From a virus (lineage: Duplodnaviria > Heunggongvirae > Uroviricota > Caudoviricetes), in the IMG/VR virus record IMGVR_UViG_2913177423_000001, positions 1 to 64,000 of that record: a stretch of DNA of 64,000 nucleotides. The stretch is one strand, 5' to 3'. Positions within the stretch are counted from its first letter, which is position 1. The number at the start of each line of letters is the position of its first letter. Below are positions 1-62,927 of the stretch, piece after piece. The notes under the pieces were generated by a model that saw only the letters and a list, made by a program, of their open reading frames with translations, was not told the origin of the DNA and did not search any database. The position numbers were made by a program, and so were the translations under genes.

Positions 1-4
1 CGAG

Positions 5-30
5 TTCTCTTAAACCAAGGTTTAAGATTA
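5..30. other. hix/gix/cix-like DNA-invertase crossover site
   Basis: 26-bp near-palindrome TTCTCTTAAACCAAGGTTTAAGATTA with AAACC-AA-GGTTT core typical of hix/gix sites; overlaps the stop codon of the adjacent invertase gene. Confidence 0.5.
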
Positions 31-609
31 AAAGGATGATGCCGGAAACTTTTTATAAAGCGTGGATACAGCAACATCATAGATAATTGCAATCTGCTTA
101 CGTGAGATGCCATTTTCCAGTAAACGGCGCATTTGCTGCCATGTTTCCTCTGGATATTTAGGCCGACGGCCTCCTATTCGGCCCTCTGCGCGAGCTGCAT
201 CAAGCCCGGCGCGAGTGCGCTCAATGATTAGTTCGCGCTCCATTTCAGCCAAGGCACCCATAACATGGAAGAAAAAACGCCCCATTGGTGTGCTGGTATC
301 GATGGAATCAGTGAGACTACGGAAATTAATGCCTCTGTCACGCAACTCTTCAACCAGCACAACCAGGTGGCGCATACTGCGCCCAAGCCTATCCAGCTTC
401 CAGACAACCAAAGTATCTCCTTCCGATAGTGTGCGTAGAACCTTTTTTAAACCAGGTCGATCGGCATTTTTCCCACTCGCCTTGTCCTCGAAAATTAGCT
501 CACATCCTGCGCATTCAAGCGCATTTCTCTGTAAGGCGGTGTTTTGGTCATTTGTTGATACGCGGATGTAACCAATAAGCATGTGCCTCCCCTTATATAT
601 GAACGGCAT
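28..609 (-). CDS. cin: serine recombinase, Hin/Gin/Cin-family DNA invertase
   Basis: 193-aa ORF; N-terminal GYIRVSTNDQ catalytic-serine motif, resolvase core VWKLDRLGRS, C-terminal HTH; close resemblance to P1 Cin and Mu Gin. Confidence 0.9.
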   Translation of the reverse strand: MPFIYKGRHMLIGYIRVSTNDQNTALQRNALECAGCELIFEDKASGKNADRPGLKKVLRTLSEGDTLVVWKLDRLGRSMRHLVVLVEELRDRGINFRSLTDSIDTSTPMGRFFFHVMGALAEMERELIIERTRAGLDAARAEGRIGGRRPKYPEETWQQMRRLLENGISRKQIAIIYDVAVSTLYKKFPASSF

Positions 610-672
610 TTTAGTTGGGAAATAACAAACTGGATAAGTTTAAGCGGCGTTAAACGTCATTTCTGGAGGGGT

Positions 673-999
673 ATGTTTGCAGATTATGAAAATCTGGCTG
701 TAGCAGTCATAACATCCCTGCTAAGTGGAACCGGTGTATTCCTTCTCGGGGTTAGGGACGGACGTATTTCTGCGTCACTGCTCAATCTCGCGAGTGAATT
801 GTTTACTGCGGTGACTGCCGGGCTTGCGGGGTTTTGGGTGGCGGATAGCTATGAATGGCCTGAAGGCATCATTTACTGCGTTGTTCTGATTGCCAGTAAC
901 AACGGTAGTGAAATTTTACAGGGCTTGAAGTCCAGAGCTAGCAACGTTTTGAATCTCTTAAGCGTAATAGCGAATGGGGGAAAAGGTGGAGAGAAATAA
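673..999 (+). CDS. small membrane protein, holin-like (position comparable to P1 lydA)
   Basis: ATG at 673 preceded by GGAGG; hydrophobic segments and charged C-terminus; the track start at 583 would overlap the invertase gene. Confidence 0.4.
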   Translation: MFADYENLAVAVITSLLSGTGVFLLGVRDGRISASLLNLASELFTAVTAGLAGFWVADSYEWPEGIIYCVVLIASNNGSEILQGLKSRASNVLNLLSVIANGGKGGEK

Positions 1000-1445
1000 T
1001 GGGTAACTTTGGGAATTATTTCATTTTTATCATGGCGTTTGTTGCCATCATTGACCGTTTCATTTTTCGTCGCAAGAGTGTTGAAATTTTGAGTATTGGT
1101 GACGCTGTAGTGAAAGAATCTGCTATCGCATTTCCTGTTTCGCTACGTGTTAAGCGAAGCTGGGTTAGCAATGCTCAAATCGAATATTGGCTGCAAGACC
1201 TGAAAAATCCATCTGTGGTTATTTCAGGGAAAACGCGACCAGTTGACGCTTCAAAACGCGGGGAGAGAGAAGAGTATTTGCTCATTGATACGAAATATCT
1301 TGAGCCAACGAAGTGGGATCTGAAAGTCACATTGACTAACGGTAACTGCCGACTGAATCCGCTTTATCGCATTTTCCCTATCAATGACTGCATAGAGCGC
1401 CAGTTTACGATCGAAAAACGTGAAGGAGACTGGAATGTCGAATAA
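999..1445 (+). CDS. hypothetical membrane-anchored protein (antiholin-like position)
   Basis: 148-aa ORF with N-terminal hydrophobic helix; start overlaps upstream stop. Confidence 0.4.
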   Translation: MGNFGNYFIFIMAFVAIIDRFIFRRKSVEILSIGDAVVKESAIAFPVSLRVKRSWVSNAQIEYWLQDLKNPSVVISGKTRPVDASKRGEREEYLLIDTKYLEPTKWDLKVTLTNGNCRLNPLYRIFPINDCIERQFTIEKREGDWNVE

Positions 1446-2052
1446 GGCTAATTATGTTCTTCTTAATTATGATGAGTTAAACGAAAAGGGACTGGCAAAA
1501 CTCGTCAAAGAAATCAGCAAAGGTGGTTACAAGATAGCGAGGGTGATCCCTGCCAGCAATGGCAGGAAGAAAGATGGGATCATGACACGCACGTTTACCC
1601 TTGTTGGTATTGATGAACAGACAATGGAAGTCCAGGTTAACGATACCGGAGATATATCTGGGATAAAACTGAACGGTAAAACAGTACCGTTCAAGCCAGT
1701 AAAAACAATGGCGGCTTTGGGGCAGTCTCTCGCGGCTTTATTTAATCGCGGAGCAACATCTTTCCAGAAATCATTAGCTCGAAAACTTGCTCGTGCAGCA
1801 AAAAATATTGATGAAGGAAATAAGAAGCGACAAGGGGTTAAATCCAACGCTCAGAAGTTAGCTGAAGCGAAAGAATCACGTGATGCGCTTCGTGAAGATA
1901 TCGCTAATGCTAACGACAAACTGGCTAAGATCCAAAGCAAGTCAGACAAGGCAATGCAAGATGCGGATAACGTTAAAGCGGCATTGTCTCAGGAACAAGC
2001 TAAGACGCGTGCGCTTAAAGAAGAAATCGCGCGTCTGGAGGATGAAGCATGA
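1435..2052 (+). CDS. hypothetical protein with C-terminal coiled coil
   Basis: ATG at 1435 with AAGGAG 6 nt upstream; Lys/Ala/Glu-rich C-terminus; stop overlaps next gene. Confidence 0.55.
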   Translation: MSNKANYVLLNYDELNEKGLAKLVKEISKGGYKIARVIPASNGRKKDGIMTRTFTLVGIDEQTMEVQVNDTGDISGIKLNGKTVPFKPVKTMAALGQSLAALFNRGATSFQKSLARKLARAAKNIDEGNKKRQGVKSNAQKLAEAKESRDALREDIANANDKLAKIQSKSDKAMQDADNVKAALSQEQAKTRALKEEIARLEDEA

Positions 2053-3998
2053 TTAAGAATCCCATACGGATCAATATTCAATCTACTTTCGCTGATACGA
2101 TTCCCGGTTATACACCGAGCCGCTGGTCTTCGGAGGATTTAAGTGAAGATGATCTGATTTTTGAAGCGGCTACATTAGAAGATATCGAGCTTGCCTATAT
2201 GGGCAATGAAATTCTTGTTGTGTCCGACGAAGCTATGTTTGAGGCCATTACTACGACCAGAATTAGGCTTGCACAAACAATGCGGGCTTTCGTGCGTGCG
2301 CTAAATCGTGGCTTGAATGGAACGAATATATCAGCAGGAACTGATGAAGCCGGGGCGGATGAAAATGGTCGGAATTGTATTGGCGGAGCAATTATCGGGC
2401 GTGTTCGTCGCGTAGCTAATATTCCTGTTTTAACAGCACAGATACCACTGACTGATGGGCAAAGCACAAGTATCATCTTCCACTCTCCAACCGCCGATGG
2501 CGCGAAAATCAAGAGTAATGATGAACTGGTTGCATTTCAGTTTTTACTTAATAAGCGTAACGTAACTCACGTTGTTGCCCCGATCGGCGGGAGAGATGTT
2601 TCTTTAAGCCAGGTTTGCCAGGCGCTTTCTAATTTGATTGAGCGTAACAGCGCAAAATTCAAGAAGGCAAAAGAGCGACAGGACAAAATGAAGGCGGATA
2701 TTGAGAGTTATCTCAATGAAGCTGATAAGCTGGCTGAAGAACGGTCAATGATGATTGAGCGGGTGGAAGTAGCGCAGCGTGGACTGACAGAAAAGCGCAA
2801 TGCCCTCGCGGAAATGCAGAAACAACTTGATGCACAGAAAGTCCTTAACGCAGAGTTGCAGGAAAAACGAGATAAGTTGCTGTCTTATAAAAAGAATAAA
2901 GCAAAAGAAAGAACTTTTAATGACCAACTTCGACACGTAAAACATAACCTTGCCACTGATGGTAAAACTACGCTGGATAACGGCGCTGTTGTAAATTATG
3001 TGACGTTAGATGGTGATAGCTTCGTTACGATCGCGGCACCAGAAGGTAATTTCAGTATTGATGTCGGTGACGTCAAAGGTGGCAGCCTGGCAGACGCGGC
3101 AACCAAACTACTTAAAGCCTATCGAGAACATAATGCTGATAAATACAAAGTAGATGTGTTGCCAGGACAGCCGGAGCCAACTGTTCAGTCACAGCCAGAA
3201 TTACAACAAGATTCTGATCCACAACCAGCATCTCCGCAAGATACTCAGCATGTAGGCAAATACCGCTATGCTCTTCAATCGCGCCCGGCGGGGGTTGGTG
3301 CGGTGCCGGATGGAAATACAGCCGTGCTTGACCGTCCCGACCAGGCTGACCCGTATTACGAGTATGCTCGTTACGGGATCATTACGTATGACCGTAAACT
3401 GACAGATGAAGAAGTCAGTCAGTATGAATTACGCTATCTACCTGATGACGATGAACTGAAAAATATGGCGGGGGAACTGGTTGCGTCCAGCATGGCAAAA
3501 CACATTGATGGCTATGTAGACCTGTTTGGCAGTGACTTGAAAACATTCAAGGCGCAAGTAAAAATTCTTTTCCGCAAAGAGTTTCCGAACGTGGCTTATC
3601 CGCTTGGTGATGGGGAGAACCTTTTCATTATGGACGTATATAACGCCCTTCAAAATCATTCAAACGAAGCAACGCCAGAGCCTGAATTAGCACCTGTAGT
3701 TGAGCCAGAATCACACCCACAAACAGAACCAGAGCAACAGCCAACGCCGGAAGATGCTGGAGAAGCGGCAACTGAAGCTGATCAGGAAGCAGATAAAGCG
3801 TTGGAGTACCTTAAATCCGTCCCGGTGCAGTTTACATCCCGCGATCTGACGGTAATCAGTGCCGAACTTGACCATGTGCAGGAAGCTGCAAACGCTCTTA
3901 TCAGTGCTGGTCGATACGACGAGAACGAATCAACGGTTGGCGCAGCAGTTGACTACCTGATCAACATTCTGGCTGAAATTCAGCAGGGAGGTGCTTAA
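2049..3998 (+). CDS. large acidic coiled-coil protein, possible DarA-like head-internal protein
   Basis: 649-aa ORF coupled to upstream gene; size and position after invertase and lysis-like genes recall the P1 darA operon; no motif-level confirmation. Confidence 0.5.
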   Translation: MIKNPIRINIQSTFADTIPGYTPSRWSSEDLSEDDLIFEAATLEDIELAYMGNEILVVSDEAMFEAITTTRIRLAQTMRAFVRALNRGLNGTNISAGTDEAGADENGRNCIGGAIIGRVRRVANIPVLTAQIPLTDGQSTSIIFHSPTADGAKIKSNDELVAFQFLLNKRNVTHVVAPIGGRDVSLSQVCQALSNLIERNSAKFKKAKERQDKMKADIESYLNEADKLAEERSMMIERVEVAQRGLTEKRNALAEMQKQLDAQKVLNAELQEKRDKLLSYKKNKAKERTFNDQLRHVKHNLATDGKTTLDNGAVVNYVTLDGDSFVTIAAPEGNFSIDVGDVKGGSLADAATKLLKAYREHNADKYKVDVLPGQPEPTVQSQPELQQDSDPQPASPQDTQHVGKYRYALQSRPAGVGAVPDGNTAVLDRPDQADPYYEYARYGIITYDRKLTDEEVSQYELRYLPDDDELKNMAGELVASSMAKHIDGYVDLFGSDLKTFKAQVKILFRKEFPNVAYPLGDGENLFIMDVYNALQNHSNEATPEPELAPVVEPESHPQTEPEQQPTPEDAGEAATEADQEADKALEYLKSVPVQFTSRDLTVISAELDHVQEAANALISAGRYDENESTVGAAVDYLINILAEIQQGGA

Positions 3999-4366
3999 TG
4001 ACTATCTCTGTTTTAGACCGTCTGAAATTGGGTAAAGAGCTATCAGATTTAATGCAGGCGCAGAAAACCGCGCCAGTATTACAACGCGTCGCAATTGGTA
4101 AGCAGATTGTTGATCTGATGCTTAAGCTGGGGCTGGGTGCTGCCGCTCAACCGATATCGGAACCGCAACCACAGTCTGATCCTGTTGCAGATGAAGTTCC
4201 TAAGATAGTGACTGACTTCTTGGGCGGTGTGTTCACAAAGTCGACACAAATGGAATTTATTGATGCGCTGCGTGGGATCTCAAACTATGTTGGCGAGTTC
4301 CTTACGTTGGAGCAGGCTAAAGAGCAGACCATCGGTTGGGTTAAAGCCAACGGATATGCCGGGTAA
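3998..4366 (+). CDS. hypothetical protein (122 aa)
   Basis: ATGA-coupled to the upstream gene; same operon. Confidence 0.55.
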   Translation: MTISVLDRLKLGKELSDLMQAQKTAPVLQRVAIGKQIVDLMLKLGLGAAAQPISEPQPQSDPVADEVPKIVTDFLGGVFTKSTQMEFIDALRGISNYVGEFLTLEQAKEQTIGWVKANGYAG

Positions 4367-4370
4367 TCAA

Positions 4371-4392
4371 AAGGGGCTGAAATGCCCCTTTC
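4371..4392 (+). terminator. putative intrinsic terminator or attenuator
   Basis: hairpin AAGGGGC-tgaaat-GCCCCTT just after stop of 3998..4366; weak U-tract. Confidence 0.4.
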
Positions 4393-4460
4393 ACTTATCT
4401 GTTCTCACATAAATCACACACTTTTTACACTTCCAGCTTTCTCTATAGGGGGAGTGTATT

Positions 4461-5846
4461 TTGAACAAGTCAGTTACTTCTGCGCTTTCCGAGGCCGCAG
4501 ACATTAACAGCGTCATTGCTCTGGTTTCTTCATTAGAGAGGAAGGAAACACGCCTGGGGCGAAGTAGCTACGTAGTCACCAGCAAAGGCGCAGAGGTAAA
4601 GACAGCTTTTAAGGTTGTTGATGCCAGTAGCCTAATCATTTCGAATAACCTTGACGGTACGATTAACACTGCATTCCCGGAAGAACTCCAGCCACGTGAT
4701 CGTACACGTCTATCTAGCAAACTTCAGGTTAACCGTATTGCCTCCAATTTACGCCCAGCACAATTAACGGATTCAGGAATGAGTAGCCACGGAGCGCCAA
4801 TAGTTGGGCCTGACAACGTTGTTGAATCTGGTAATGGAAGGAGTATGGGGATCTGGCGCGCCTATGAGCAAGGACAGGCAGATGAATATCGCCAGTACCT
4901 GATCGACCATGCGAAAGAGTTTGGTCTGAATCCTGACGAAATTTCGCAAATGTCTATGCCCGTACTGGTGCGTGAAAGACTCACTGATGTAGATCGTGCG
5001 CAGTTCGCTCGCGATTCCAACATAAGTGATCTGCAAGAGATGGCGGCGAGTGAGAAAGCGTATGCTGATGCGCAATTCCTCACTGAGAGCGTCATGGCGC
5101 TATTTAATCCTTCAGAAGATGGAAATCTACTGGCGCGGTCCAATGATGCTTTTATTCGTGCGTTTTTGCGCGAAATAGGCGATACCGCGACGGCGGGTTT
5201 GCTTACTGCCGATGGGCGCCCTACGAAACAGCTGATCGACCGCATCCAGAATGCGATTTTTGCCAAAGCCTACAAAGATGAGCGACTGGTCCGGTTGGTG
5301 GCGGAAGAGCCAGATCCGGAAATGCGTAACATCCTGACCGCACTCAATACGGCAGCCAGCGATTTTGCGCAAATGCAGTCGCTGTCTGGCGACGTTCACC
5401 ATGACGCCGTAACTGGTTTAGTGGACGGTATAGAGCAGGTTAACGGTCTGGATACACAGGCAATTGCGGCACTCCAGGAAGCAATCAATCTTGTTCGTGA
5501 AGCCAAAGACAACGGTCAGGCCGTTGAAGAAGTGATCGCCCAAAGGGGGTTATTCGGCGACAGCACGCCAGAAGCAGAGGCGTTGGCGCTATTCATCGTA
5601 GCAAATAATCGTAGCGCGAAGCGTATGGGGGCAGCATTCAAAAAAATGGCGCAAAAAATCAACGACGAGCTGATTCATAAACAACAGGCGCTTGGCGATA
5701 TGTTCGGTGGTGAAGAAGTCGATTTGCGCAGTATTTTGTCTGTTGTTTCTGATGAAATTGAGGCTGAGTTTGGTGAAGGGAAAGGTCTGAACTTTGCTAT
5801 GTTCGAAAATTCTACAGCCCTAAATAATTGCAGTACGGAAAACTAA
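4461..5846 (+). CDS. hypothetical protein (461 aa), possible virion-associated protein
   Basis: long ORF; TTG start at 4461 preceded by GGGGGAG; no recognisable catalytic motif. Confidence 0.55.
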   Translation: MNKSVTSALSEAADINSVIALVSSLERKETRLGRSSYVVTSKGAEVKTAFKVVDASSLIISNNLDGTINTAFPEELQPRDRTRLSSKLQVNRIASNLRPAQLTDSGMSSHGAPIVGPDNVVESGNGRSMGIWRAYEQGQADEYRQYLIDHAKEFGLNPDEISQMSMPVLVRERLTDVDRAQFARDSNISDLQEMAASEKAYADAQFLTESVMALFNPSEDGNLLARSNDAFIRAFLREIGDTATAGLLTADGRPTKQLIDRIQNAIFAKAYKDERLVRLVAEEPDPEMRNILTALNTAASDFAQMQSLSGDVHHDAVTGLVDGIEQVNGLDTQAIAALQEAINLVREAKDNGQAVEEVIAQRGLFGDSTPEAEALALFIVANNRSAKRMGAAFKKMAQKINDELIHKQQALGDMFGGEEVDLRSILSVVSDEIEAEFGEGKGLNFAMFENSTALNNCSTEN

Positions 5847-5910
5847 ACCAACCGCTGAAATCACATACTGATTATGCTGCCGCGAAACTGGAAACAATTC
5901 GCGGTGATTC

Positions 5911-7593
5911 ATGGCAACGAAAGACAAAAACAAAGGTTTTCTGTCGGCATTGAAGAAAGCCTTCAACGGTGGTGATGTTACGCCCGCCGATCCGGTCGTT
6001 TTTACGAGCGGGCATAGTGTCGTTGCTCGTTCCGGCCTGTCCGCTTTACGTCCAGGCATCCTGGGGGGCAACAGCGATGGCATGACGAGTGCAGCAGATT
6101 CAATTTCTTTATCCGCTGAACTGCCCGGCGAGCGCCTGCAAAAGTACAACATCCTGGAAACGATGGCTAAAAGCCCGACTATCTCGACGGCTTTAAACAT
6201 TCACATTGCACATGCGCTTGCGCCTTCAAAAAAAACCGGGCTGGCATTCACGCTTTCGCCAAAAGATGGTTCCGATGCCGAGGCGGTAAGTAGATGTGAA
6301 GAGTTAACCGCAGATTTAGGGGCGATGATTAATGACGGTCTGCCTTCATGGGCCATGATTATGGCGATCTTTGGGGTGTCTTATGTCCGACCTTATGCTG
6401 AACAGGGCAGAGGGATAACTGGCATTGAATCCAGTTATTACACTCTTCCACACTTCGTCCAGGAATTTTATCGCGGTAGCCAGCTGGTCGGTTTCAGTGG
6501 TGATTACATTCTGGATACGCATAGTTTGCGCAGGGTAATAACCGAACCGTGGAATCTTGTTTCCATGAAAAACCCGTATTGGACGCCGCAGCATAAGGTT
6601 ATTCCGGTTAGCTACGGTACAAAAGGGTATTCACTGTTAAGTGATCAGGCTGATAAGCCGTTAATGGAGACGCAGAATTACGGAACTTCATTCCTGGAAT
6701 ACAGTTATGAACCCTACCTGAATTTATGTGCTGCGCTCGCCGCGCTGAAATCAACTCGAAATAATGCAGCCAAAATTGACCGTCTGATTGCTCTTACGAC
6801 GAACACACTGGACCCAGTTAATGCGGCTAACTATACGCGTGGCGTCAGCCAGGCATTGAAGCGTCATAGTGACCTGGTGGCACAAAGATCGATTAATGCC
6901 AACGCTATTCCTACGGTGCTTAACCATCTGATACCAGTTATGGGCGATGGGAAGAACGGCATCACTATTGATACGCAGTCTATACCCGCAGATATCAGCG
7001 GAATTGAAGACGTTATGTTTCATCTTCGTCAGTTAGCGGCCAGTTTAGGCATTGACGCCACGATGCTCGGTTGGGCAGATCAAATGAGTGGCGGGCTTGG
7101 AGAGGGAGGATGGCAACAAACTGCTATCCAAGCTGCATTACGTGCGAACTGGATCAGACAGGCCGCCCAGCGAACTATTTATCGGCTTCATGACATTCAC
7201 CTCGCCTACAAATACGGGAAGGTTTACACCGAAACAAACCGCCCGTATGACGTGCAATTCAACTCAATGAACACGGCTATCCAGGAGGAAGAAAACCGAG
7301 AACTGGATGCGCGCGCCAACTTTGTAGCTGTCATCTCGCAAATTATGGACCAGGTCCAGAACAACCCGAAACTGGCTGGTAGCGACGCGTTTATGCGCTA
7401 TCTGTTCACCGAACAGCTGCACATCGACGATGACACTCTCAATACCATGATCAAAGAGTTTAAGGCGAATGAATCAGAGCAAAACAACGAGCATGGCATG
7501 TACGAATCCGCGCCGTTGTCGTCAGGCGACAATCCAGAAAACTGGACGCTAGAGCAGTTAATCAACTTTGCAAAATTTGTGATGAGCAATTAA
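5911..7593 (+). CDS. hypothetical 560-aa protein, portal-protein candidate by size and context only
   Basis: ATG at 5911; long ORF in same rightward operon; no diagnostic motif seen. Confidence 0.4.
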   Translation: MATKDKNKGFLSALKKAFNGGDVTPADPVVFTSGHSVVARSGLSALRPGILGGNSDGMTSAADSISLSAELPGERLQKYNILETMAKSPTISTALNIHIAHALAPSKKTGLAFTLSPKDGSDAEAVSRCEELTADLGAMINDGLPSWAMIMAIFGVSYVRPYAEQGRGITGIESSYYTLPHFVQEFYRGSQLVGFSGDYILDTHSLRRVITEPWNLVSMKNPYWTPQHKVIPVSYGTKGYSLLSDQADKPLMETQNYGTSFLEYSYEPYLNLCAALAALKSTRNNAAKIDRLIALTTNTLDPVNAANYTRGVSQALKRHSDLVAQRSINANAIPTVLNHLIPVMGDGKNGITIDTQSIPADISGIEDVMFHLRQLAASLGIDATMLGWADQMSGGLGEGGWQQTAIQAALRANWIRQAAQRTIYRLHDIHLAYKYGKVYTETNRPYDVQFNSMNTAIQEEENRELDARANFVAVISQIMDQVQNNPKLAGSDAFMRYLFTEQLHIDDDTLNTMIKEFKANESEQNNEHGMYESAPLSSGDNPENWTLEQLINFAKFVMSN

Positions 7594-7606
7594 CCGGAGG
7601 GAAATA

Positions 7607-8605
7607 ATGCAATCACTGAACACTGTTACGGATCGCTTCTCCCTGGTAGAGAAAATCCGCAAACACACACCGCAGAACAATCGAAATTACGTTATTCAGT
7701 CGGTGCGAGACACATTCAACTCCCCAGAAACAAAAGAGCGTATCGCACTTGGTGAGATGTATGGCTATTACGGACATGGTCGCCGGGCGATGCACTATAA
7801 CAAAACGAAAAGCCTGAACCTGCCGGAAGTCTCTGTTGTGATGGTTGATGGGAAACCTGTTGTATTGGAGAACGTGCCATCAAACAGGACTATCGACATT
7901 TCGATTGACGACAACGGCATTGTTACCCATACGCAGGAAATACTGGATACAGACACCGGGCGTATTGTACAGGGAATGATTAATTCTGGTGCGGGTGGTT
8001 GGTCGTGGGCTACATCTGGCCCAGATTCATCTGTATCTCTGGTAAAGTCTTTTCACGGCTTTGATTACGTAACTGTGCCTAACTATATCAGTCTGGACAA
8101 GAAAAGCCTGATGCTGGAATCAGCAGAAGAGCGCGACGCGGCTATTCATGCGGCACTTATCGAACAAGGTTTTACCGATAACGCGGCTACGGATCTTGTT
8201 CACCACTTTTCAGCAATGAAGAATCAGCAGGCTATTTTCGAGTCAGCACAGCGTGAAGCCCTTGAGTCAGAATTGATGCTCCTTGAAGTGGAAAATATGC
8301 AACTTCGCGACAAATTACGCAACCAGGCCGAAATGATGGAAAGCCAAGGCGAAGATGCGAAGAAATGCCGTAGGATTTTGCGTGATGCTATCCAGGAAAT
8401 GCCTGTTTTTATCAGCGCAGAACAGCGCCGGGCGCTCTGCCGTATGCAGTCTGAAGATGATGCTCGCATAGTGGCTGCGATGCTTGAATCTCTGGGGGCA
8501 AATGCGACTTATGGCTTGCCGATATCAGGCAAGAAAGAGCCGGAGTTATCGCCGAAGGAGAGCAAAAATACTACCCCATTACTCTTCGTTTCGCGACGGG
8601 CATAA
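7607..8605 (+). CDS. hypothetical 332-aa protein with C-terminal coiled coil
   Basis: ORF 13 bp downstream of preceding gene; last gene of the block before a terminator. Confidence 0.5.
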   Translation: MQSLNTVTDRFSLVEKIRKHTPQNNRNYVIQSVRDTFNSPETKERIALGEMYGYYGHGRRAMHYNKTKSLNLPEVSVVMVDGKPVVLENVPSNRTIDISIDDNGIVTHTQEILDTDTGRIVQGMINSGAGGWSWATSGPDSSVSLVKSFHGFDYVTVPNYISLDKKSLMLESAEERDAAIHAALIEQGFTDNAATDLVHHFSAMKNQQAIFESAQREALESELMLLEVENMQLRDKLRNQAEMMESQGEDAKKCRRILRDAIQEMPVFISAEQRRALCRMQSEDDARIVAAMLESLGANATYGLPISGKKEPELSPKESKNTTPLLFVSRRA

Positions 8606-8615
8606 CTGCCATATG

Positions 8616-8632
8616 AAATTAAATTTCTAACA
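8616..8632 (-). promoter_or_regulatory. C1-like operator motif copy
   Basis: AAATTAAATTTCTAACA, reverse complement of the recurrent TGTTAGAAAATTAATTT motif. Confidence 0.5.
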
Positions 8633-8720
8633 TAGTGTATTTATATACACTGTTGATCCTGTCCGATGTGATCGAGTAGGATCGCGGTCACTGCTCCGGT
8701 AGCGACTGCCAAAAAAAAGC

Positions 8721-8746
8721 AAAAGCCGCTGAGAAGCGGCTTTTTG
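8721..8746. terminator. bidirectional intrinsic terminator
   Basis: GCCGCT-gaga-AGCGGC hairpin flanked by A-run upstream and T-run downstream. Confidence 0.7.
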
Positions 8747-8748
8747 GT

Positions 8749-8776
8749 GTATAAATCTACGGACATAGATTTATAC
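8749..8776. promoter_or_regulatory. perfect 11-bp inverted repeat, candidate operator
   Basis: GTATAAATCTA-cggaca-TAGATTTATAC immediately upstream of gene 8806..9768. Confidence 0.4.
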
Positions 8777-8805
8777 GGTAGATAGATTTTTCACGGAACT
8801 ATCTG

Positions 8806-9768
8806 GTGAATATTTTAAATTCAGTTTCAGTAACTTTCAACACTTCTGAGTATAAAAACAACACTGAATACCACAAAAAAATCAAAGGTCATCAGTTGAG
8901 TTTTTTTGCTCGCCACTGTGGTTTTCTTTCCCCTTCACATAGCGCCATTATTGCCGAGTTCGCCAACCTGGCAGGGGCTACCGATGAATACATGATCCGT
9001 CGCTCATATGCCGATATGTCAGATATTACGGGACGCAGTATTTCAACTGTACGCCGGGCATTTGCTGAAGCGACGAAGTGTGGAATGCTTGTTAAACAAC
9101 ACCAGGTGGCGAATAACAATGCCCAGGTTTGTAACGTATATCGGTTTACAACACAATTTCTCCACTTCATTCATGTTGCAATGGAGATCGGGGGTAAGCA
9201 GGGCATTAAATTTGCCAACGCAACAAAACTGGTTAAGCAGTTGATTTCAAAGGTTCGTTATTTTTTTGAAACTGGGAACCCCCTGTTCAAATTGAACAAG
9301 TCCCCCCATGTTCAAAATGAACAGCCAATAGAAAATAAGAGTAAACCCATAACCAAAAGAAGAGAAAGATCATGCGCGGTTCAGCCGAAGGCTTCACCAG
9401 CAGATAGTTCTCAAGCGGGTAATGGCTTACTGGATAAAAAACCAGTGATTAGAGAAGAGCATGTCAACCACAGCCTGGCTGCGGCAAAAGCGAGAGCTGC
9501 AAAGCGTCGTTCAGACGAGGGCTATGCAAAACAACAGGCTCTGTATCGTACCGCTGAAAAGCTGGCAAAAAAATTTGCATGGATACGTAATGCAGCTGCC
9601 GCAGTGAATAAGCCCAAACCATCCAGTGCTCTGGATTTCTCTATGGATTATTCTGGCTATCAGGGATGTAAAACAGTTGCTGAAGCCTTTGAACTGATGA
9701 AACAGCGTGGCTATCAGTCTGAATTTGACCGTGAAGATTGGTCAGTTCCAGCGGGCTTCAGAGGATGA
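8806..9768 (+). CDS. winged-helix DNA-binding protein, possible regulator or replication initiator
   Basis: 320-aa ORF with GTG start; HTH-like segment DITGRSISTVRRAFAEATKCGMLVK; basic C-terminal region. Confidence 0.4.
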   Translation: MNILNSVSVTFNTSEYKNNTEYHKKIKGHQLSFFARHCGFLSPSHSAIIAEFANLAGATDEYMIRRSYADMSDITGRSISTVRRAFAEATKCGMLVKQHQVANNNAQVCNVYRFTTQFLHFIHVAMEIGGKQGIKFANATKLVKQLISKVRYFFETGNPLFKLNKSPHVQNEQPIENKSKPITKRRERSCAVQPKASPADSSQAGNGLLDKKPVIREEHVNHSLAAAKARAAKRRSDEGYAKQQALYRTAEKLAKKFAWIRNAAAAVNKPKPSSALDFSMDYSGYQGCKTVAEAFELMKQRGYQSEFDREDWSVPAGFRG

Positions 9769-9824
9769 CTCGCGAGTGCCTACAAAATATCCCAATGACC
9801 GGAAAATGTTCGCTCGGAAATTTG

Positions 9825-9841
9825 TGTTAGAAAATTAATTT
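9825..9841 (+). promoter_or_regulatory. C1-like operator motif copy
   Basis: TGTTAGAAAATTAATTT, exact match to the inferred consensus. Confidence 0.5.
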
Positions 9842-10183
9842 GCTGTTGCTAAATCGCAATGTATGATCTGCATCATCGACTGAAATCATCCATTGCTGAA
9901 ATTTTTAGTTGATCTTCCTAATGTTCAGGCTTATATTCACGTCGTCGTAGCAAATTCTGCGACCAGGTTTGACAGCCTGAATGTTAGTGCGGACAACCGC
10001 AGATTTCCGATATTGCGGTATTTTTGTGTCCGTAAACCGCGTTACGCCCGAATTATGGTGGGGCGTGATGGGGAGGCTTCGGCCTGCTGGTTTCACTAAC
10101 GCCAGTCTGTCAACCCTGTCACGTCCTGCCACCTGTTTGACAGCGGGTAGCAGGTTGTTAAACCTGTTAGTGAGGCCGTAACT

Positions 10184-11320: not shown

Positions 11321-11346
11321 GCCCCGGCCTGGCCGGGGCTTTTTTC
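11321..11346. terminator. bidirectional intrinsic terminator
   Basis: GCCCCGGCC-tg-GCCGGGGC hairpin followed by TTTTTT; lies between convergent genes. Confidence 0.7.
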
Positions 11347-11830: not shown

Positions 11831-12021
11831 AACTACCCCTCTGATTAACAAACGAACATAAACTATGGGGAGTATGTGATTTTCATGGCAGCAATTTTCT
11901 TATCCCGGTACGCCCATAAGCCTTCCTTGTCCGTGGCATGTTGAGTGTTAACCGTATACTGAATGTTTGAGCTTTCTCATTAATTAACTATATGATTTAA
12001 ATCATAAATGTTGTTACGTTT

Positions 12022-12436: not shown

Positions 12437-15400
12437 CCTTTTCCGCTCTTATTCTTCCAAATTAACACACTCCATACCCTTTCAAACCGTACCGCTACAG
12501 GCGGATTTAACGGTTTTGAGGGGGCTTCCTTTGGACAAAATAATTGATTCAATTAGCCAGGCCACCAGCATTGGGGCGCTGATTGAAATTGTTAGTCGGT
12601 TGCATAAACCGCGATCTGTTGCGACCTTTGGCGTTAAGAAAGTCGATGGTGTCAGCATTCAAAAAACACGGCGGGCAGCAAACAACGCCGCAGTAGAGCT
12701 TCTTAATTCCCTTCCGCCCGGATTCGATGGGGCGAAATTAACTGAAGAACAGCGTCAGATTCTCGCCGGGTATACAGGTGAAGGCGGCCTTACTGACGGC
12801 GAGGGCAGCCAATACGAATACTACACACCACAGTTTATGGCTGAAGGTATATGGGATCTGTTTGCTGACTACGGTATTGATGGGGGTCATGTACTGGAAC
12901 CATCAGCTGGCACGGGTATTTTCCAGGAGACAAAACGGCAGGGAATGATAATGACCAGCGCCGAGCTGTCTCCGATCTCCGGTCGAATCAACCAGCTGTT
13001 GCACCCGGAAGACGATGTGAACATTGGGGCGTTCGAGGCTCTGGCGGCGAAAGACGCAATGTATGACCACGCTGTTGGTAACGTACCGTTTGGCGAAGGC
13101 CGTTCCGGCGTTGCAGGGCTTGATCCGGCATATGCAAACGAGAAGAACGTTGGCAATTACTTTGTGCTGCGCACGATCGACAAGGTTAAACCTGGTGGGC
13201 TTATCGTATTGGTGGTGCCGAATGGCATGACTGATGGTACGAAATACAAAAAATTGCGCGATAAAGTCAGCCGTAAAGCGGAATTTTTGGGCGCGCATCG
13301 TATGCCTTCCGGTACGTTCAGTGAATCAGGTACAGATACCGTGGTGGACGTATGGGTATTGCGTAAACATCCAGAAGCCTTCCTGGAGATGATCCCCGAT
13401 ACGGACGATTCGACGCTCAAATCGGCAAACGTCCTTTGGGATACCTTTCTCAAAGGGAAATGGTTCACTACGGAAGGAAAACGCTTTGTTTACGGCGATA
13501 TGGAGCGTACCAGCTTCCGCAATACCCTGGTGGTGAAAAAGGACGGTCGTGTATCCAATGAGTCGATGAAAACCGCGCTATCTCGTCGCTTTGATAGTCG
13601 CATCAATTGGGATTTGCTCGGCGTAACTACTCAGGCATGGCAGGGCGCGAAAGTGGGCGATAAACGCCTTGTAGGCGGCATCTGGCATGAGTTTGATGGC
13701 CTGAAATGGGTCAAGGACACGACAACCAAATCCTCCGCGCTTGATGTAAGCCGATATGGTGTTTCGACGTTTGGCGATCTGCAGATCGCGTTTCAGTCAA
13801 CAAATGGCATTCTGGCGTTGTCATGGGACCAGATATCGGCGATCGCGTCCGACTATCCATCGGTTATCAGTGATGAAGTAGCTGCAATGATTCGCTTTGC
13901 AGGCAAGCAGCGAGAAAAAGACAGAGAGCGCGTTATGCGCGGCGCACTGATAGGGCAGTTGATCAACAAGGCGCTTGATTTGCGTAACCTGGGGGTGAAT
14001 GTTGATGACAAACTGGCAGATGCATCCCGCCTGGCGGCAGCAGAAGTTGCGAAGTATGGACCACCGCACGCGATTAAGCTGAATGGGATTGTTGAAGCTG
14101 GCGCTAAAAACTGGATGACGTTCACTGGGAACGTGAAACAGGATGGCTCTACTTCGGACCTTCTTGCCGGACGACTTGATGTAACTAATGGCGCATCAGG
14201 TATCGACTTTGCTCGCCCGGAACAGGTTGTTACACACCTTTTCAGCGATGTGGCCCTTAATCCGATAACACTGGACGATTTCCGTGAGGCGTTTACTGGC
14301 GAACTGCCAGAAGACGACGATGCCGCTCTGGAATACCTGGCTAAATTTGAAGATATCGCTATTGATGGGTATGGCTGCCTGCTACCAATGGACCGCGCCA
14401 CCAGCGGCGACATTGCAACCAAAACAGCATTGCTGGTGGGCTGGCGTGATGCAGCAACAGGTGAGCAGAAAGCGAACTTTGAGCGCCAGTTGGCGAAAAT
14501 CGAAGAGAAACGCATTTTCACGCCACTAAATAAAGTCACCGTTAATCTGAATGCCCGCTGGCTGGACCGCCGCTTGATAAAAGAGTTCCTGGCAGAACAG
14601 GGCTATGACGAGTTTAAGTACACAGAACCTGATCTGAAGGTCGTCGATGGCATTCTGGTATCCCCGGACGATTACGAAGGTAAGGACGGGGTATTTACTG
14701 GCTATCAGCTACGAACCGTAAACGGCAAAAACGGGAATGAGTTCAAGAAGGCCAACAATAAAGACGGCTTCCTGAACCAGTTAGAAAACTACCTGAACGG
14801 CGTCAAACCGCGAGGGCAGAACGCTAACGAGTACCTGGATAAGATTGCTCAACTTGAAGTTAGCTTTAACGACTGGTTACGCACTCACCCGCAGGCTGAT
14901 CAGATAGCCCGCGACTATAACGACGCATTCAATGGCTTCATCCCGTTTACACATTCTGACGCACCGCTTGGCCTGGAAGGGATTAGTGGGAAGCGCATTC
15001 CTCTGACTTATCAGAATGAGGAAGTTCGTCGCTTGTCAGAAGATGGGCGCGGCATCATGGGATTTGGCACCGGGCTTGGTAAAACCACGACTGCGCTTGC
15101 ACTTGAGGCGTATAACTTCGAAACAGGCCGAACTAAACGCACCTGTATTGTTGTCCCGAAAGCGGTTTATCAGAACTGGTATCACGAGGCTCAGAGCTTC
15201 TACAGTCCAGAAGCCTTCTCAAATATGATGTTTATCGGGCTTGATGAAGTTCGTGATGACGGCGGCAATATTCTTACCGCGCCAGTGCTTGATGAAAATG
15301 GTGAACCACGTCTGGACAGAAACGGTCAGCCTCTTACCCGCAATGTGGTGAAAGAGTCCTCCAGTGCCGTTATCGTTCAGCGCATGAACATGATCCCGTC

Positions 15401-18400
15401 GTCAAATTGGCGAACGGTCATCATGACAAAAGAACAATTCGCGTCTATCCCGCTACGAGAAAAAACCATCGAGGAGAACTCACAGCAAGCTGTCTTTAAT
15501 GCTGTTGAAATGGGGCGTCTTGACCTGGCGTCTGGCAAGCACCGTGACGCGCAGAAGAAGAACAAGATTAAGGACCAGGCCGCAAATACCGGGACCACGA
15601 AGAAGCAGAATATCCCGTACTTTGAGGATATGAACTTCGATAGCGTGATTGCCGACGAAGGGCATAACTACCGCAACTCATTTAATGCCGGGCGTGAAGC
15701 GGGGCAGATGGCATATTTGCCTAACCCGGCAGTATCCAAAATGGCCCGCGACATGGCTGTAAAAGCTGCGTACATGATGAAACGCAACAACGGGCGCGGA
15801 GTAGTTATGCTGACGGCAACACCGCTGGTGAACAGTCCGATTGATGCTTTCAACATGCTGTCTACTGTTATTCCGCAGGAAGAGTGGATGCGCATGGGCA
15901 TTATTACGCCGGATGATTTCGTTCGTGTGTTTGGCAAAACTGCCACCGTTCAGGTCCAGAAAATTTCCGGGGAAGTGGAAGAGAAGCAGGGGCTGGTGGG
16001 CTTCCAGAACCTTGATGGTCTGCGTGGTATTTTCCACCGTTGGACCACTCTGAAGACTGCTGCGGATGTTGGAGCGACGGTCAAAATCCCCGACATCATC
16101 GAGAATACCTTGCAGATCCCGATGACAGGGGAGCAGGAGGCTGCTTATGAAGAGCTTCGCAAGCGTGCACAAGAATTAAGTCGTAAAGATGCGCTGACAG
16201 TCGATGAAAGCGGGCATATCACAAGCGAAAAGCCGGATGACTTCATCTTCTCCATCATCCGCGACATGGATAAGGTTGCTATAGATCCGGATCTGTATGC
16301 CAGTGCGATTACATTCCAGTTCCCCGTTGAGCTTGCAGACAAGGTAAAAGCTATTGCTGATGGCCTGCCAAAAGTAGCTGGCGGTAAAGTGGCAGATGAT
16401 GCAGACGAGGCCGAGGAAGACGGCGCTGGCGGGCTGGTTAGTACGCGTACCAGCAAGGTAGTGAAGACCACCTTTAGTGAACATCCGGCGCATGTTGAAA
16501 TACGTGCCAGCATTGAACTGGAGGCTGAAATACTGAAGGCCATTGCTGCCGCCGGGATTGATATGCAGCAGGTATCACACCCCATCCCGCCGAAGTATGC
16601 CGCGCTGATCGAAAACCTTCGTGAAGGCCTGAAGAACGGTAAACAAATCGTCTTCATTGATGAAAAAGCCCAGCACCAGAAGCTGCGCCGTATTATCGCC
16701 AGTGCACTGCAAATGCCGGAGCAGGAGATAGGCATTATCAATGCGACGACCGTTAGCCAGGCTGGCGGCATCAAGCTGAAGAAGGTGAATAAGCCGACCG
16801 AACCTACTCCGAATAAAAACGGTGAATACAAAGAAGGGGCATGGGAAACCTACTACAGCAAACTTGCCCAATATGAGGATTATCTCTCAGCTAAAAATGA
16901 TGCTGGCCTTGAGGGTATGGAAGGCATTGCCGCCGACTATAACGAAGGTCGCACGCGCATCATTATCTGTAACAAGAAGGCTGAAGTAGGTATTAACCTG
17001 CATATCGGGACAACCGATATCCACCACCTGACACTACCCTGGACACCAGCCAGTATCGACCAACGAAATGGGCGCGGTGCGCGCGTAGGTTCACCGCAAG
17101 AGAAGGTCAATGTTCACTACTATTGTGGCAAAGGCACATTCGACGACTTCCGTCTGGATACGCTGAAACGTAAGAAAGACTGGATCAAGATGGTGATGAC
17201 CTCCGACATGTCAGAGATCGCCAATGGTGATGCGGATGATGCTGATGAACGCGCCATTATGCTGGCGGCAAACCCGGAAGAACGCCGCGCAATCATGGCT
17301 CGCCAGGCGCAAGAGCGTGAAGAACGTCTGAAACTGAAAGCACAGCGCGAGGCCAACAATGCTCTCGATATCTACCTGAAAGCGGCAAACGCCGCCGGAA
17401 AAGATATCGGCATGATGGAGACAGAACTGAAAAGCGCGATGGAACAGATAGAGTATTACCAGCGAAATCTTGACGACCTGATAAAAGCGGGTACGAACAG
17501 GAATGGGCAAAAATACGCGCTTGAGCAGTTGAGTAGCTACAGAAAACGTGCGCGGGTGCTGCGGTTTGCGATCACCAGGGCAAAAGACGCGGATACCATA
17601 ATGAAACGCTCTCGTGGTGATGTGGAGCGCGCTATTAAGTCTGGTGTGCTGGATATCAGTATCGATGTTATTCAGAACCCACAGGAATATATGCGCACTG
17701 ACAAGAATATCCTGTTGCATAAAGGTAGTTATTACCGTGCAGTCATTGATGATCGCGAAACAACAGCGATTGTCCGGGTGGAAAAAATTGACGGTGAAAA
17801 AGCACAATACCTCTGCCGTATCGCCTGGCTGGATAGAGCAAGTCGTTACGCTCGATCACCGGGGTCTATCGTTACATTGCCGTTTGACTCTGTGATTGAA
17901 GCGGTAACTTTTGAAGAGGGGGTAGCTGAATCGCGCGCAACGGCTGCGCGTGGTGTTCAGTGCCACCAGCTATCAACAATACTTACTCGCGATCAGTTCT
18001 ATGATGCTATTCGCAATGGGGTAATGAATGTTATTGCTGGTAAACCTGGTAATGCATGGGGCGGTGGGTCAGCTATTAAATACTGGGCATATCGCACAGA
18101 TGATGGTCAGATCGCGCTGTCATCGGCCTATGATGGCGTGATAGGCCAAAAAATCGGGCGAGCATCGGATATAGCACCTGAGCGATGGATATATCCTGAT
18201 GGCAACGACGAGGCGCTGAAGCGTGAAGTGGCAAAAATACAAGCCAGTGATAACCCGCTGAATATCGTGGACGGCGAGGGATTCCTCCAGGCATTGTATG
18301 GGTATGATTACATCCAGGGAATGCAGGCATGGGGCGCACAGGCAACGATGGATGATGTTGCCCAGGAGTTCGAAAACTGGATGGCTGGGCGTGGTCTGTC

Positions 18401-19367
18401 AGGTCGCTCGCTTAATAAAGTCACTTCTGAAGATATTCTTAGCTTGTTCCGCAAACCGTCCGGAGAAGGTCTGGAATCATTCTGGAGGACCGTGCTGGCA
18501 TACCGTTTATTCAAGGGCAGGATGAAAGCCTTTAGCAATATCGATGATATTGAACGGATGTTTAATCAGGTCAAGATCGCGAAAATTAAGACGAAGATCG
18601 AAAAGACACGTTCTGCGCTGGTGGCCTGGCGCGATGCATTGTTTGAGCAATATAAATCACTCAGTGATGCAGATGGATGGGCGGCACTGGAACAGTTGGC
18701 GAATAATGGGGTAGATGGAGCGAAACTCGCCATAGTCCAGGCTGATAACCCCCTGGAATCACCGGCAGCACAGTGGATTAAGGTGGGTGCTGTCATCAAT
18801 GCCTTTGATGAAAAACACATCAGTAAGGACGATTTTGCTGATGCTGTTTCCCTTAATCGCCTGGTAGAAATGGCTGTCCGCCGCGCTCGTGAGTTGAAAG
18901 ACGGTGACTATGTGAATGAGTTGCCAGATGCGCTCAAATCGGCAACGTGGCAAGACTATGTATCGCTGAAAAACGGCGGGGCCACTGAATCAGAGATCGC
19001 GGAAAGGCTTGAGCAGGCTGAAAGCAAAAGAGAAGAGCAGGCGGCAGAGGCTGAAGCCAGGGCTGATGAAGCGGCGAATGATGACTATATCATTGTGGTT
19101 AATGATAAGCCGATTCGCGCTAAGGCACGTGTTCGCGGGCGCTGGTGGAGTGTCAGCGAGGACGTTGGCGCGGTTTATCTCATTGCCGATCAGCCAGGTT
19201 CCTCGACAATACGGAACGCCAAAGACGCCATTAAGAAGATTGGCGGGCGTTTCTGGAATTTTGAAGCAAACCCGGTTGCTGATGTGAACTTTGACCGTCC
19301 GGCATGGATGGTATCTACGCGTTACTCGGTAGATGAACTGCGTAAAATAATAACCAACGCGGCCTAA
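12414..19367 (+). CDS. darB: DarB-like giant methyltransferase-helicase, putative anti-restriction protein
   Basis: 2317-aa ORF; SAM-MTase motifs LEPSAGTGIF and NVPFGE, helicase motifs GFGTGLGKTT, DEGH and QRNGRGARVGS; true start probably TTG near 12531 after GAGGGG. Confidence 0.8.
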   Translation: MSSFVSPDLFRSYSSKLTHSIPFQTVPLQADLTVLRGLPLDKIIDSISQATSIGALIEIVSRLHKPRSVATFGVKKVDGVSIQKTRRAANNAAVELLNSLPPGFDGAKLTEEQRQILAGYTGEGGLTDGEGSQYEYYTPQFMAEGIWDLFADYGIDGGHVLEPSAGTGIFQETKRQGMIMTSAELSPISGRINQLLHPEDDVNIGAFEALAAKDAMYDHAVGNVPFGEGRSGVAGLDPAYANEKNVGNYFVLRTIDKVKPGGLIVLVVPNGMTDGTKYKKLRDKVSRKAEFLGAHRMPSGTFSESGTDTVVDVWVLRKHPEAFLEMIPDTDDSTLKSANVLWDTFLKGKWFTTEGKRFVYGDMERTSFRNTLVVKKDGRVSNESMKTALSRRFDSRINWDLLGVTTQAWQGAKVGDKRLVGGIWHEFDGLKWVKDTTTKSSALDVSRYGVSTFGDLQIAFQSTNGILALSWDQISAIASDYPSVISDEVAAMIRFAGKQREKDRERVMRGALIGQLINKALDLRNLGVNVDDKLADASRLAAAEVAKYGPPHAIKLNGIVEAGAKNWMTFTGNVKQDGSTSDLLAGRLDVTNGASGIDFARPEQVVTHLFSDVALNPITLDDFREAFTGELPEDDDAALEYLAKFEDIAIDGYGCLLPMDRATSGDIATKTALLVGWRDAATGEQKANFERQLAKIEEKRIFTPLNKVTVNLNARWLDRRLIKEFLAEQGYDEFKYTEPDLKVVDGILVSPDDYEGKDGVFTGYQLRTVNGKNGNEFKKANNKDGFLNQLENYLNGVKPRGQNANEYLDKIAQLEVSFNDWLRTHPQADQIARDYNDAFNGFIPFTHSDAPLGLEGISGKRIPLTYQNEEVRRLSEDGRGIMGFGTGLGKTTTALALEAYNFETGRTKRTCIVVPKAVYQNWYHEAQSFYSPEAFSNMMFIGLDEVRDDGGNILTAPVLDENGEPRLDRNGQPLTRNVVKESSSAVIVQRMNMIPSSNWRTVIMTKEQFASIPLREKTIEENSQQAVFNAVEMGRLDLASGKHRDAQKKNKIKDQAANTGTTKKQNIPYFEDMNFDSVIADEGHNYRNSFNAGREAGQMAYLPNPAVSKMARDMAVKAAYMMKRNNGRGVVMLTATPLVNSPIDAFNMLSTVIPQEEWMRMGIITPDDFVRVFGKTATVQVQKISGEVEEKQGLVGFQNLDGLRGIFHRWTTLKTAADVGATVKIPDIIENTLQIPMTGEQEAAYEELRKRAQELSRKDALTVDESGHITSEKPDDFIFSIIRDMDKVAIDPDLYASAITFQFPVELADKVKAIADGLPKVAGGKVADDADEAEEDGAGGLVSTRTSKVVKTTFSEHPAHVEIRASIELEAEILKAIAAAGIDMQQVSHPIPPKYAALIENLREGLKNGKQIVFIDEKAQHQKLRRIIASALQMPEQEIGIINATTVSQAGGIKLKKVNKPTEPTPNKNGEYKEGAWETYYSKLAQYEDYLSAKNDAGLEGMEGIAADYNEGRTRIIICNKKAEVGINLHIGTTDIHHLTLPWTPASIDQRNGRGARVGSPQEKVNVHYYCGKGTFDDFRLDTLKRKKDWIKMVMTSDMSEIANGDADDADERAIMLAANPEERRAIMARQAQEREERLKLKAQREANNALDIYLKAANAAGKDIGMMETELKSAMEQIEYYQRNLDDLIKAGTNRNGQKYALEQLSSYRKRARVLRFAITRAKDADTIMKRSRGDVERAIKSGVLDISIDVIQNPQEYMRTDKNILLHKGSYYRAVIDDRETTAIVRVEKIDGEKAQYLCRIAWLDRASRYARSPGSIVTLPFDSVIEAVTFEEGVAESRATAARGVQCHQLSTILTRDQFYDAIRNGVMNVIAGKPGNAWGGGSAIKYWAYRTDDGQIALSSAYDGVIGQKIGRASDIAPERWIYPDGNDEALKREVAKIQASDNPLNIVDGEGFLQALYGYDYIQGMQAWGAQATMDDVAQEFENWMAGRGLSGRSLNKVTSEDILSLFRKPSGEGLESFWRTVLAYRLFKGRMKAFSNIDDIERMFNQVKIAKIKTKIEKTRSALVAWRDALFEQYKSLSDADGWAALEQLANNGVDGAKLAIVQADNPLESPAAQWIKVGAVINAFDEKHISKDDFADAVSLNRLVEMAVRRARELKDGDYVNELPDALKSATWQDYVSLKNGGATESEIAERLEQAESKREEQAAEAEARADEAANDDYIIVVNDKPIRAKARVRGRWWSVSEDVGAVYLIADQPGSSTIRNAKDAIKKIGGRFWNFEANPVADVNFDRPAWMVSTRYSVDELRKIITNAA

Positions 19368-19403: not shown

Positions 19404-19838
19404 ATGACGACATTAATCGATACCGTTAAACCGACAGAATCTTACCTTGAAGAAATTTTGCCGCAGGCGCTCAATGGCAGGAGTGAAGACGAGTTCCTGA
19501 CAGTATATCTTGCTGGGATGGTTGAAAGGCTAAAGAAAGATCCACAGCTTTATCACCTTTATGGTCCGTGGTGGCCTGCGCTTAAAACGATATTGCTGGA
19601 GCGCGGCGACACATCATTTGGACAGGTTGTAGATAGCGATGTGGCAGAGATCTACAGAATGAGTCGCCCGGCGCTTACGGTTTTAGCCGGGCATCTGTAT
19701 TCGAGCGAGCGCCTGGAAAATGACGCGGTATACAATCCAGTTCATGCTCTGGAAGTTGCACCTTATGCTGATGATACAGAGCCATACGTATACACTAGTT
19801 ACGACGAGTCTATAGAGAAATATCGAATTATGGGGTAG
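19404..19838 (+). CDS. hypothetical protein (144 aa)
   Basis: ORF following a GC hairpin after darB-like gene. Confidence 0.5.
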   Translation: MTTLIDTVKPTESYLEEILPQALNGRSEDEFLTVYLAGMVERLKKDPQLYHLYGPWWPALKTILLERGDTSFGQVVDSDVAEIYRMSRPALTVLAGHLYSSERLENDAVYNPVHALEVAPYADDTEPYVYTSYDESIEKYRIMG

Positions 19839-49865: not shown

Positions 49866-50095
49866 TTTTCAACCTTTTGCCACAAATCCAGACCAACTAC
49901 CTAATAATAATAACTAACCACTCTGTTTTTTTGATAAGCACCAAATCGTTTACAAAAAAAATAGCAAATGACTATTGACACTATTCTGGAAATCACAAAC
50001 TGCACATAATCCATCGCGCTAACGGCTCCCGTTGAAGGTTCTTTTGACGATTAACTTTCAGCCGAAGCGCGGTAGGGAGTCATAACGCCAAAGCA

Positions 50096-62850: not shown

Positions 62851-62927
62851 ATTTCGTGATTTCACTCTCTCTTTGAGTGACGAAATAACAAAGTGATGAC
62901 AATAGGCGAATAACCAGGAGATGAAGA

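Follow-up and report, generated by a model that had tools for sequence, protein, structure and literature searches.

Dar, portal and prohead protease genes in the late region of a probable D6-like plasmid prophage

The stretch of DNA analysed here (64,000 nucleotides [nt], hereafter the window) comprises positions 1 to 64,000 of the IMG/VR virus record IMGVR_UViG_2913177423_000001 (Caudoviricetes). Near its left end, eight consecutive open reading frames (ORFs) occupy the plus strand from 583 to 8605, downstream of a divergently oriented invertase gene, in the order cin, lydA lydB hdf darA ddrA, ddrB, prt pro (Table 1); the public gene call on a contig encoding an identical protein of 649 amino acids (aa) gives the same eight genes. 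The segment from 1435 to 8605, which an earlier note on this DNA had singled out, is very probably part of the late-gene block of a D6-like plasmid prophage of the P1 family, within its late lysis, Dar and head-morphogenesis region. Positions 1 to 9000 share 90.8% DNA identity with Escherichia phage D6 across 99% of their length, and D6 coordinates 32165 down to 116 are collinear with window positions 1 to 31484 at 89-93% DNA identity, a 31-kb part that takes in the terminase, c1 and lpa neighbours. The D6 record (MF356679 / NC_050154) describes the matching genes as similar to P1 cin, lydA, lydB, hdf, darA, ddrA, ddrB, prt, pro and repL; the proteins of the window are 88-99% identical to their D6 counterparts, and all ORFs are intact and full length relative to this viable phage. 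The same block is present in more than 100 plasmids of E. coli and Salmonella: at least 80% of a 9-kb query is covered by 115 PLSDB plasmids and by 96 complete E. coli genomes (in the latter, the match nearly always lies on a plasmid of about 90 kb), with top identities of 96-97% and no identical PLSDB plasmid or complete E. coli genome. Since it is already annotated in D6 and common in enterobacterial phage-plasmids, the block is not novel; the main value of the analysis is that it confirms the window as a D6-like phage-plasmid, so that the block can be annotated with confidence.

The ORF sizes listed in the earlier note (210, 649, 122, 461, 560 and 332 aa) are real, and all six ORFs lie on the plus strand; the block had been described as seven genes, with five consecutive coupled ORFs, but 1435 to 8605 holds six genes, and the two small membrane proteins expected after the invertase exist as LydA and LydB, upstream of 1435. 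Coupling holds for lydA through ddrA, where adjacent genes overlap (lydA/lydB and darA/ddrA by 1 nt each, hdf/darA by 4 nt, lydB/hdf by 11 nt), and for prt and pro, which are 13 nt apart, but not for ddrB, which is flanked by gaps of 94 nt on the ddrA side and 64 nt on the prt side. Similarly, the description of the proteins as acidic fits DarA, DdrA, DdrB, Prt and Pro, with isoelectric points of 4.7-5.7, but not the 210-aa Hdf, a basic protein with an isoelectric point of 9.70 and a net charge of +11. Their supposed richness in coiled coils found some substance in the Hdf C-terminus, in DarA at residues ~180-300 and in Pro at residues ~190-265 (weak SMC/MutS2 coil matches, and a 74-residue helix in Pro), but nothing was flagged in DdrA; the heptad and composition screen for coiled coils is crude and over-permissive, marks helical segments in general and does not count as evidence.

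The first three proteins of the segment were related to P1 Dar proteins by BLASTP against translations from NC_005856, the source of all P1 proteins used in BLASTP comparisons, and Hdf and DarA also by searches against chains of the 2026 cryo-electron microscopy (cryo-EM) entries of the P1 virion (PDB 9ukm, 9vz0 and 9ums). Hdf was 40% identical to P1 Hdf, matched the PDB 9ukm chain H "Hdf" over residues 4-201 (E 1.4e-24), and was recovered by the Pfam model DarA_N (66 bits, well above its cutoff) and by PHROG 1620, Hdf-like (E 9e-75); at about 200 aa, with a DarA_N domain followed by a C-terminal helical domain, and encoded directly 5' of darA, it has the features that characterize its family. 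DarA was 39% identical to P1 DarA over 624 aa (E 1e-141), matched chain I of 9ukm (E 5.5e-123), and contained both DarA_N (136.9 bits) and DarA_C (67.8 bits) domains in Pfam, each scoring well over its cutoff; it passed the NCBIfam equivalog model NF052326, anti_RE_DarA, with 1150.9 bits against a cutoff of 350, residues 2-649 covering profile positions 1-654. These matches support, by analogy with P1, an assignment of Hdf as a basic internal head protein and partner of DarA, and of DarA as an antirestriction internal head protein and head-size determinant. DdrA, for which no Pfam or NCBIfam model gave a match, was 34% identical to P1 DdrA over 118 aa (E 2e-22), 96% identical to the D6 protein, and assigned to PHROG 1855, DdrA-like (E 1.5e-48).

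Two parts of DarA deserve separate mention. The P1 segment LLE68/AIS aligns with MFE65/AIT of the DarA studied here, which makes FE65/AI, the counterpart of P1 LE68/AI, a candidate Pro cleavage site. Conservation against D6 is lowest at residues ~250-400, with 62-74% identity per 50-aa block compared with 88-100% elsewhere in DarA and 95-99% in neighbouring genes; in P1 DarA, the corresponding part takes in the last portion of the helix domain together with the penton-binding domain and a PQ-rich linker. In the related E. coli plasmid NZ_CP066033.1, at 2062-5958 of the compared stretch, darA is interrupted by an IS100 element (istA/istB) and thereby broken into two ORFs; the Dar system and head-size control of that plasmid are probably defective.

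DdrB residues 4-450 aligned with residues 2-442 of P1 DdrB at 64% identity in BLASTP, and the Pfam model ddrB-ParB scored well above its cutoff, whereas a PDB sequence search gave no match. The N-terminal DdrB-like ParB/Srx domain is present with its conserved active-site arginine, and the motifs QPRDR (77-81) and VESGNGR (121-127) were invariant among homologues; a structure model built from 34 homologues reached a mean predicted local distance difference test score (pLDDT) of 74.2. P1 DdrB, in contrast, is a protein of 995 aa with a C-terminal zincin-like metallopeptidase (MPTase) that is thought to autoprocess DdrB (PMC5512222). Since the alignment ends at P1 residue 442 and tblastn found no match to this metallopeptidase half in the 64-kb window, the protein is a DdrB-core homologue of the short D6 type and not a full P1-type DdrB. 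The core alone, at about 440-480 aa, recurs in many contigs of 85-95 kb from Enterobacterales, Vibrio and Photobacterium, and some other homologues join it to different extra domains, for example PF18823. The D6 lineage thus keeps a DdrB core of ~450 aa without the metallopeptidase half, which bears on the question of which part of P1 DdrB matters.

Prt was 51% identical to P1 Prt (BLASTP) and matched the PDB 9ums chain C "Prt" with an E value of 3.9e-169; PHROG 1497, portal, was recovered at E 5e-228, together with a weak match to Pfam Portal_T4. On these sequence matches, the 560-aa protein is identified as the portal. Pro was 42% identical to P1 Pro (BLASTP), and sequence searches of Pfam (E up to 10), NCBIfam and the PDB returned nothing meaningful; it was a structure-based search that recognized a gp21/assemblin fold in the model. 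This AlphaFold2 model, built from 44 homologues with a pLDDT of 77.6, comprises a β-rich domain (residues ~1-165) and then the 74-residue helix; His57 and Ser133, the latter within GGWSW, were invariant among the 44 homologues, and His108 was nearly so. P1 Pro is a protease (PMC9024508), and the modelled fold with its conserved His and Ser residues supports a predicted function of Pro as prohead protease. The GenBank D6 record and the Prokaryotic Genome Annotation Pipeline (PGAP) call it so, whereas PHROG 1801 and the RefSeq records of P1 and D6 carry the name "tail fiber protein"; in view of the modelled fold and of the His and Ser conservation, pro homologues are mislabelled in PHROGs and RefSeq through an annotation error. 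The earlier statement that the block lacks enzymatic motifs fails for Pro, with its protease fold and invariant His57 and Ser133, and for DdrB, with its ParB/Srx domain and two invariant motifs.

Further downstream, tblastn with the P1 proteins located darB and ulx, so that all six P1 Dar components (hdf, darA, ddrA, ddrB, darB, ulx) are found in the window. The resemblance to P1 darA and ddrA beside lydA/lydB and cin, which the earlier note had proposed from the size and order of the proteins, was borne out, as BLASTP matched the six proteins and also LydA, LydB and Cin to their P1 namesakes; similarity to P1 Dar proteins, whose absence had been named as the outcome that would speak against the proposal, was detected for Hdf, DarA, DdrA and DdrB. 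By P1 homology, the DarA equivalog match and the solved P1 chains, the segment 1435-5846 is very probably the dar operon (Hdf, DarA, DdrA, DdrB), which would encode injected anti-restriction proteins as had been suggested. The portal, offered in the same note as an alternative identity for the 560-aa protein, was also correct, with the 332-aa protein as the predicted prohead protease; the two readings, set against each other at the time, are true together.

The mechanism proposed for this element is carried over from P1 by homology, to which the window contributes sequence homology, domain content, predicted folds, gene order and the full Dar gene set. In P1, six Dar proteins are present in the virion and are loaded stepwise, with DarA and Hdf needed for all others and for normal head size (PMC9024508). 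Cryo-EM of P1 resolved 55 DarA-Hdf pairs that a parallel helix bundle anchors to the inside of the capsid at penton-hexon junctions; these pairs touch the DNA and exit the head together with it, and DarA residues 1-69 are absent, consistent with Pro cleavage (PMC12810830). The P1 Dar system protects packaged DNA in cis from type I systems and from bacteriophage exclusion (BREX) (PMC12707154). By analogy, during lytic growth of the element studied here a late promoter upstream of lydA would drive lydA-lydB-hdf-darA-ddrA and probably ddrB, and a second late promoter would drive prt-pro. Prt would assemble into a dodecameric portal; Hdf and DarA, paired via their helical domains, would cover the inner capsid where pentons meet hexons, touch the DNA and determine head size; without them, DdrA, DdrB, Ulx and, last of all, DarB would not be loaded into the procapsid. 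Pro, as a Ser/His protease of the gp21/assemblin fold, would trim the major capsid protein and cleave ~65 residues off the DarA N-terminus. Leaving the head together with the DNA on infection, the Dar proteins would shield it in cis against type I restriction.

Candidate control elements lie at the ends of these units. The site at 623-640 resembles the TAACAAGTGA half of the P1 late promoters LPpro and LPlyz, and the site at 5861-5878 is conserved in D6; in P1, late promoters occupy corresponding positions ahead of lydA (LPdar) and of prt (LPpro), and a homologue of lpa is present in D6. Both sites fit the motif TMACAWASTG-NN-NANNNT (the base before the A being T, C or G), which occurs four times in the window against 0.1 expected (623-640, 5861-5878, 49993-50010 and 62886-62903), upstream of genes; since the motif was defined from these very sites, the chance statistic is circular and the motif serves only as a lead. 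It may represent a D6-type Lpa-dependent late promoter related to the TAACAAGTGA late-promoter half of P1. The P1 late-promoter consensus, applied literally, does not transfer to the window. The 94-nt spacer between ddrA and ddrB holds two hairpins, the stretch 4360-4465 folding at -32.4 kcal/mol with a z score of -4.38, and these may act in attenuation or translational control of ddrB. The hairpin that follows pro is probably a bidirectional terminator closing the block.

Several observations weigh against the assignment of the segment to a P1-like late block. The evidence for the late promoters is a motif that was defined post hoc, and a generic sigma-70 scan gave no convincing site upstream of lydA or prt and fewer sites than in shuffled sequence, although this null result is expected because late promoters are activator-dependent. 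The hairpin after ddrA makes co-transcription of ddrB with the dar operon uncertain; moreover, a DdrB without the P1 metallopeptidase half may be processed and loaded differently. Finally, Hdf, DarA and DdrA are only 34-40% identical to the P1 Dar proteins. This divergence would also suit the alternative that the proteins are purely structural or scaffolding, determining head size and stabilising the capsid without anti-restriction activity, so that their Dar names are inherited labels only; P1 DarA and Hdf are indeed morphogenetic and bind the inner capsid surface (PMC12810830, PMC9024508), P1 appears to have no separate scaffold protein, and DarA 250-400 is the most variable part of the protein even against D6. 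A purely structural role is nevertheless improbable in view of the complete and intact six-gene Dar set, including Ulx and the 2278-aa methylase/helicase-type protein DarB, of the three-fold excess of the DarA equivalog score over its cutoff, and of the conservation of the block in more than 100 plasmids. Least credible is the view that the block is decaying within a defective plasmid prophage and has lost its expression or function, as the insertion sequence (IS) elements in the block of related plasmids (IS100 in darA of NZ_CP066033.1, IS200/IS605 at the ddrB/prt junction of CP057755.1) and a DdrB of half the P1 length might suggest; here all ORFs are intact and closely match those of viable D6, the short DdrB is the normal D6-type form found in many phage-plasmid contigs of 85-95 kb, and collinearity with D6 extends over 31 kb.

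Table 1. Genes and other sequence features of the D6-like late-gene block and of the remaining Dar genes in the window.
Feature	Coordinates	Strand	Description
cin-type DNA invertase	28..582	-	93% identical to P1 Cin over 184 aa; Pfam Resolvase and HTH_7; cin and cixL annotated at the corresponding position in D6
Candidate Lpa-type late promoter of the lydA-dar unit	623..640	+	TAACAAACTG-GA-TAAGTT; ends 33 nt before the lydA ATG
lydA, holin	673..999	+	108 aa; ORF extendable upstream to 583; PHROG 1527 holin, E 2e-38; 41% identical to P1 LydA, 94% to D6
lydB, holin antagonist	999..1445	+	Pfam LydB, 87 bits (cutoff 28); PHROG lysis-determining protein; 34% identical to P1 LydB, 99% to D6
hdf	1435..2052	+	205 aa from ATG; 210 aa from upstream GTG at 1420
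darA	2049..3998	+	649 aa
ddrA	3998..4366	+	122 aa
Stable hairpin (possible attenuator or terminator)	4360..4401	+	G+C-rich; starts inside the ddrA 3' end and spans the ddrA stop codon
Second hairpin	about 4426-4458	+	Covers the GGGGGAG ribosome-binding site of the TTG-initiated ddrB
ddrB, short form	4461..5846	+	461 aa, TTG start; ParB/Srx domain and helical region
Empty cargo slot, ddrB/prt junction	5807..5857	+	51 nt in place of 1110 nt of D6
Candidate late promoter of prt-pro	5861..5878	+	TCACATACTG-AT-TATGCT; ends 33 nt before the prt ATG
prt, portal	5911..7593	+	560 aa
pro, predicted prohead (head-processing) serine protease	7607..8605	+	332 aa; C-terminal long-helix domain
Hairpin flanked by A-run and T-run (probable terminator)	8721..8744	.	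10-bp stem, called on the minus strand in a terminator scan; on the plus strand, stem then TTTTTGG
darB	12531..19367	+	43% identical to P1 DarB over 2000 aa; TTG start with Shine-Dalgarno sequence gives 2278 aa, as in D6
ulx	19404..19838	+	49% identical to P1 Ulx, E 4e-41

Within the D6-like late block, the junction between ddrB and prt emerges as a recurrent insertion point for cargo. In D6 it is filled by a cassette with orf24 (DUF4145) and orf23 (8815-9924 of the compared D6 stretch), likewise found in CP042620.1, and in CP057755.1 by an IS200/IS605 tnpA/tnpB element (5894-7583 of the compared stretch); D6 orf23 and orf24 were absent from the 64-kb window. Homology with D6 breaks within the last ~13 ddrB codons and resumes 53 nt before prt, and the C-terminal tail of DdrB therefore differs between elements. 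A more speculative extension, which we regard as doubtful at present, is that the D6-type Dar module departs from P1 in DdrB, with a stand-alone, conserved protein of ParB/sulfiredoxin fold without the autoprocessing peptidase that could be an injected enzyme (a nuclease or NTPase) with an anti-defence target of its own; the breakpoint near residue ~450, common to P1, D6, Vibrio phage-plasmids and this element, and the ddrB/prt slot could then be an exchange site for injected-effector domains and cargo genes.

Two observations concern the surroundings of the block. The window opens, at positions 1-27, approximately where the D6 annotation places cixL, the crossover site used by Cin at the 3' end of its gene. 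It follows that the invertible tail-fibre segment is situated just beyond the window edge. Ahead of darB, an ORF of 123 aa without a PHROG match (12065-12436, plus strand) follows an orf16-like peptidoglycan hydrolase gene (11345-11851, minus strand); the ~640-bp segment that contains this ORF has no counterpart in D6, where about 90 bp occupy its place.

Among known systems, D6 is the closest: its orf31-orf21 comprise the same genes in the same order and orientation, with the same overlaps, and it shares the short DdrB (~455 aa) and the 94-nt gap between ddrA and ddrB. D6 differs in its 1110-bp cassette between ddrB and prt, in the last ~10 residues of DdrB, and in the divergence of DarA 250-400. 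P1 has the same protein families, at 34-64% identity in the block, and the same internal order by cin (cin, lydC lydA lydB hdf darA ddrA ddrB); lydC, upstream in P1, and hxr, downstream in P1, were not found in the 64-kb window. The P1 spacer between ddrA and ddrB measures 12 nt compared with 94 nt here, and the arrangement of the head genes differs: in P1, about 4.5 kb separate prt-pro from the dar operon, the two units converge, and darB diverges from prt, whereas in the window prt-pro comes immediately after ddrB on the same strand and darB-ulx is located ~4 kb further downstream. With regard to T4 gp21, HK97 gp4 and herpesvirus assemblin, Pro has no sequence-level match in Pfam or the PDB, and unlike these proteases it carries a C-terminal helical extension of ~170 residues that includes the long helix. 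The T4 internal proteins IPI-III provide an analogy from the literature, as they are likewise packaged in the head, injected with the DNA and directed against restriction (PMC9024508, PMC12810830); they show no homology to the Dar proteins, however, and are small inhibitors of a type IV enzyme, while type I systems are the target of the cis-acting Dar proteins.

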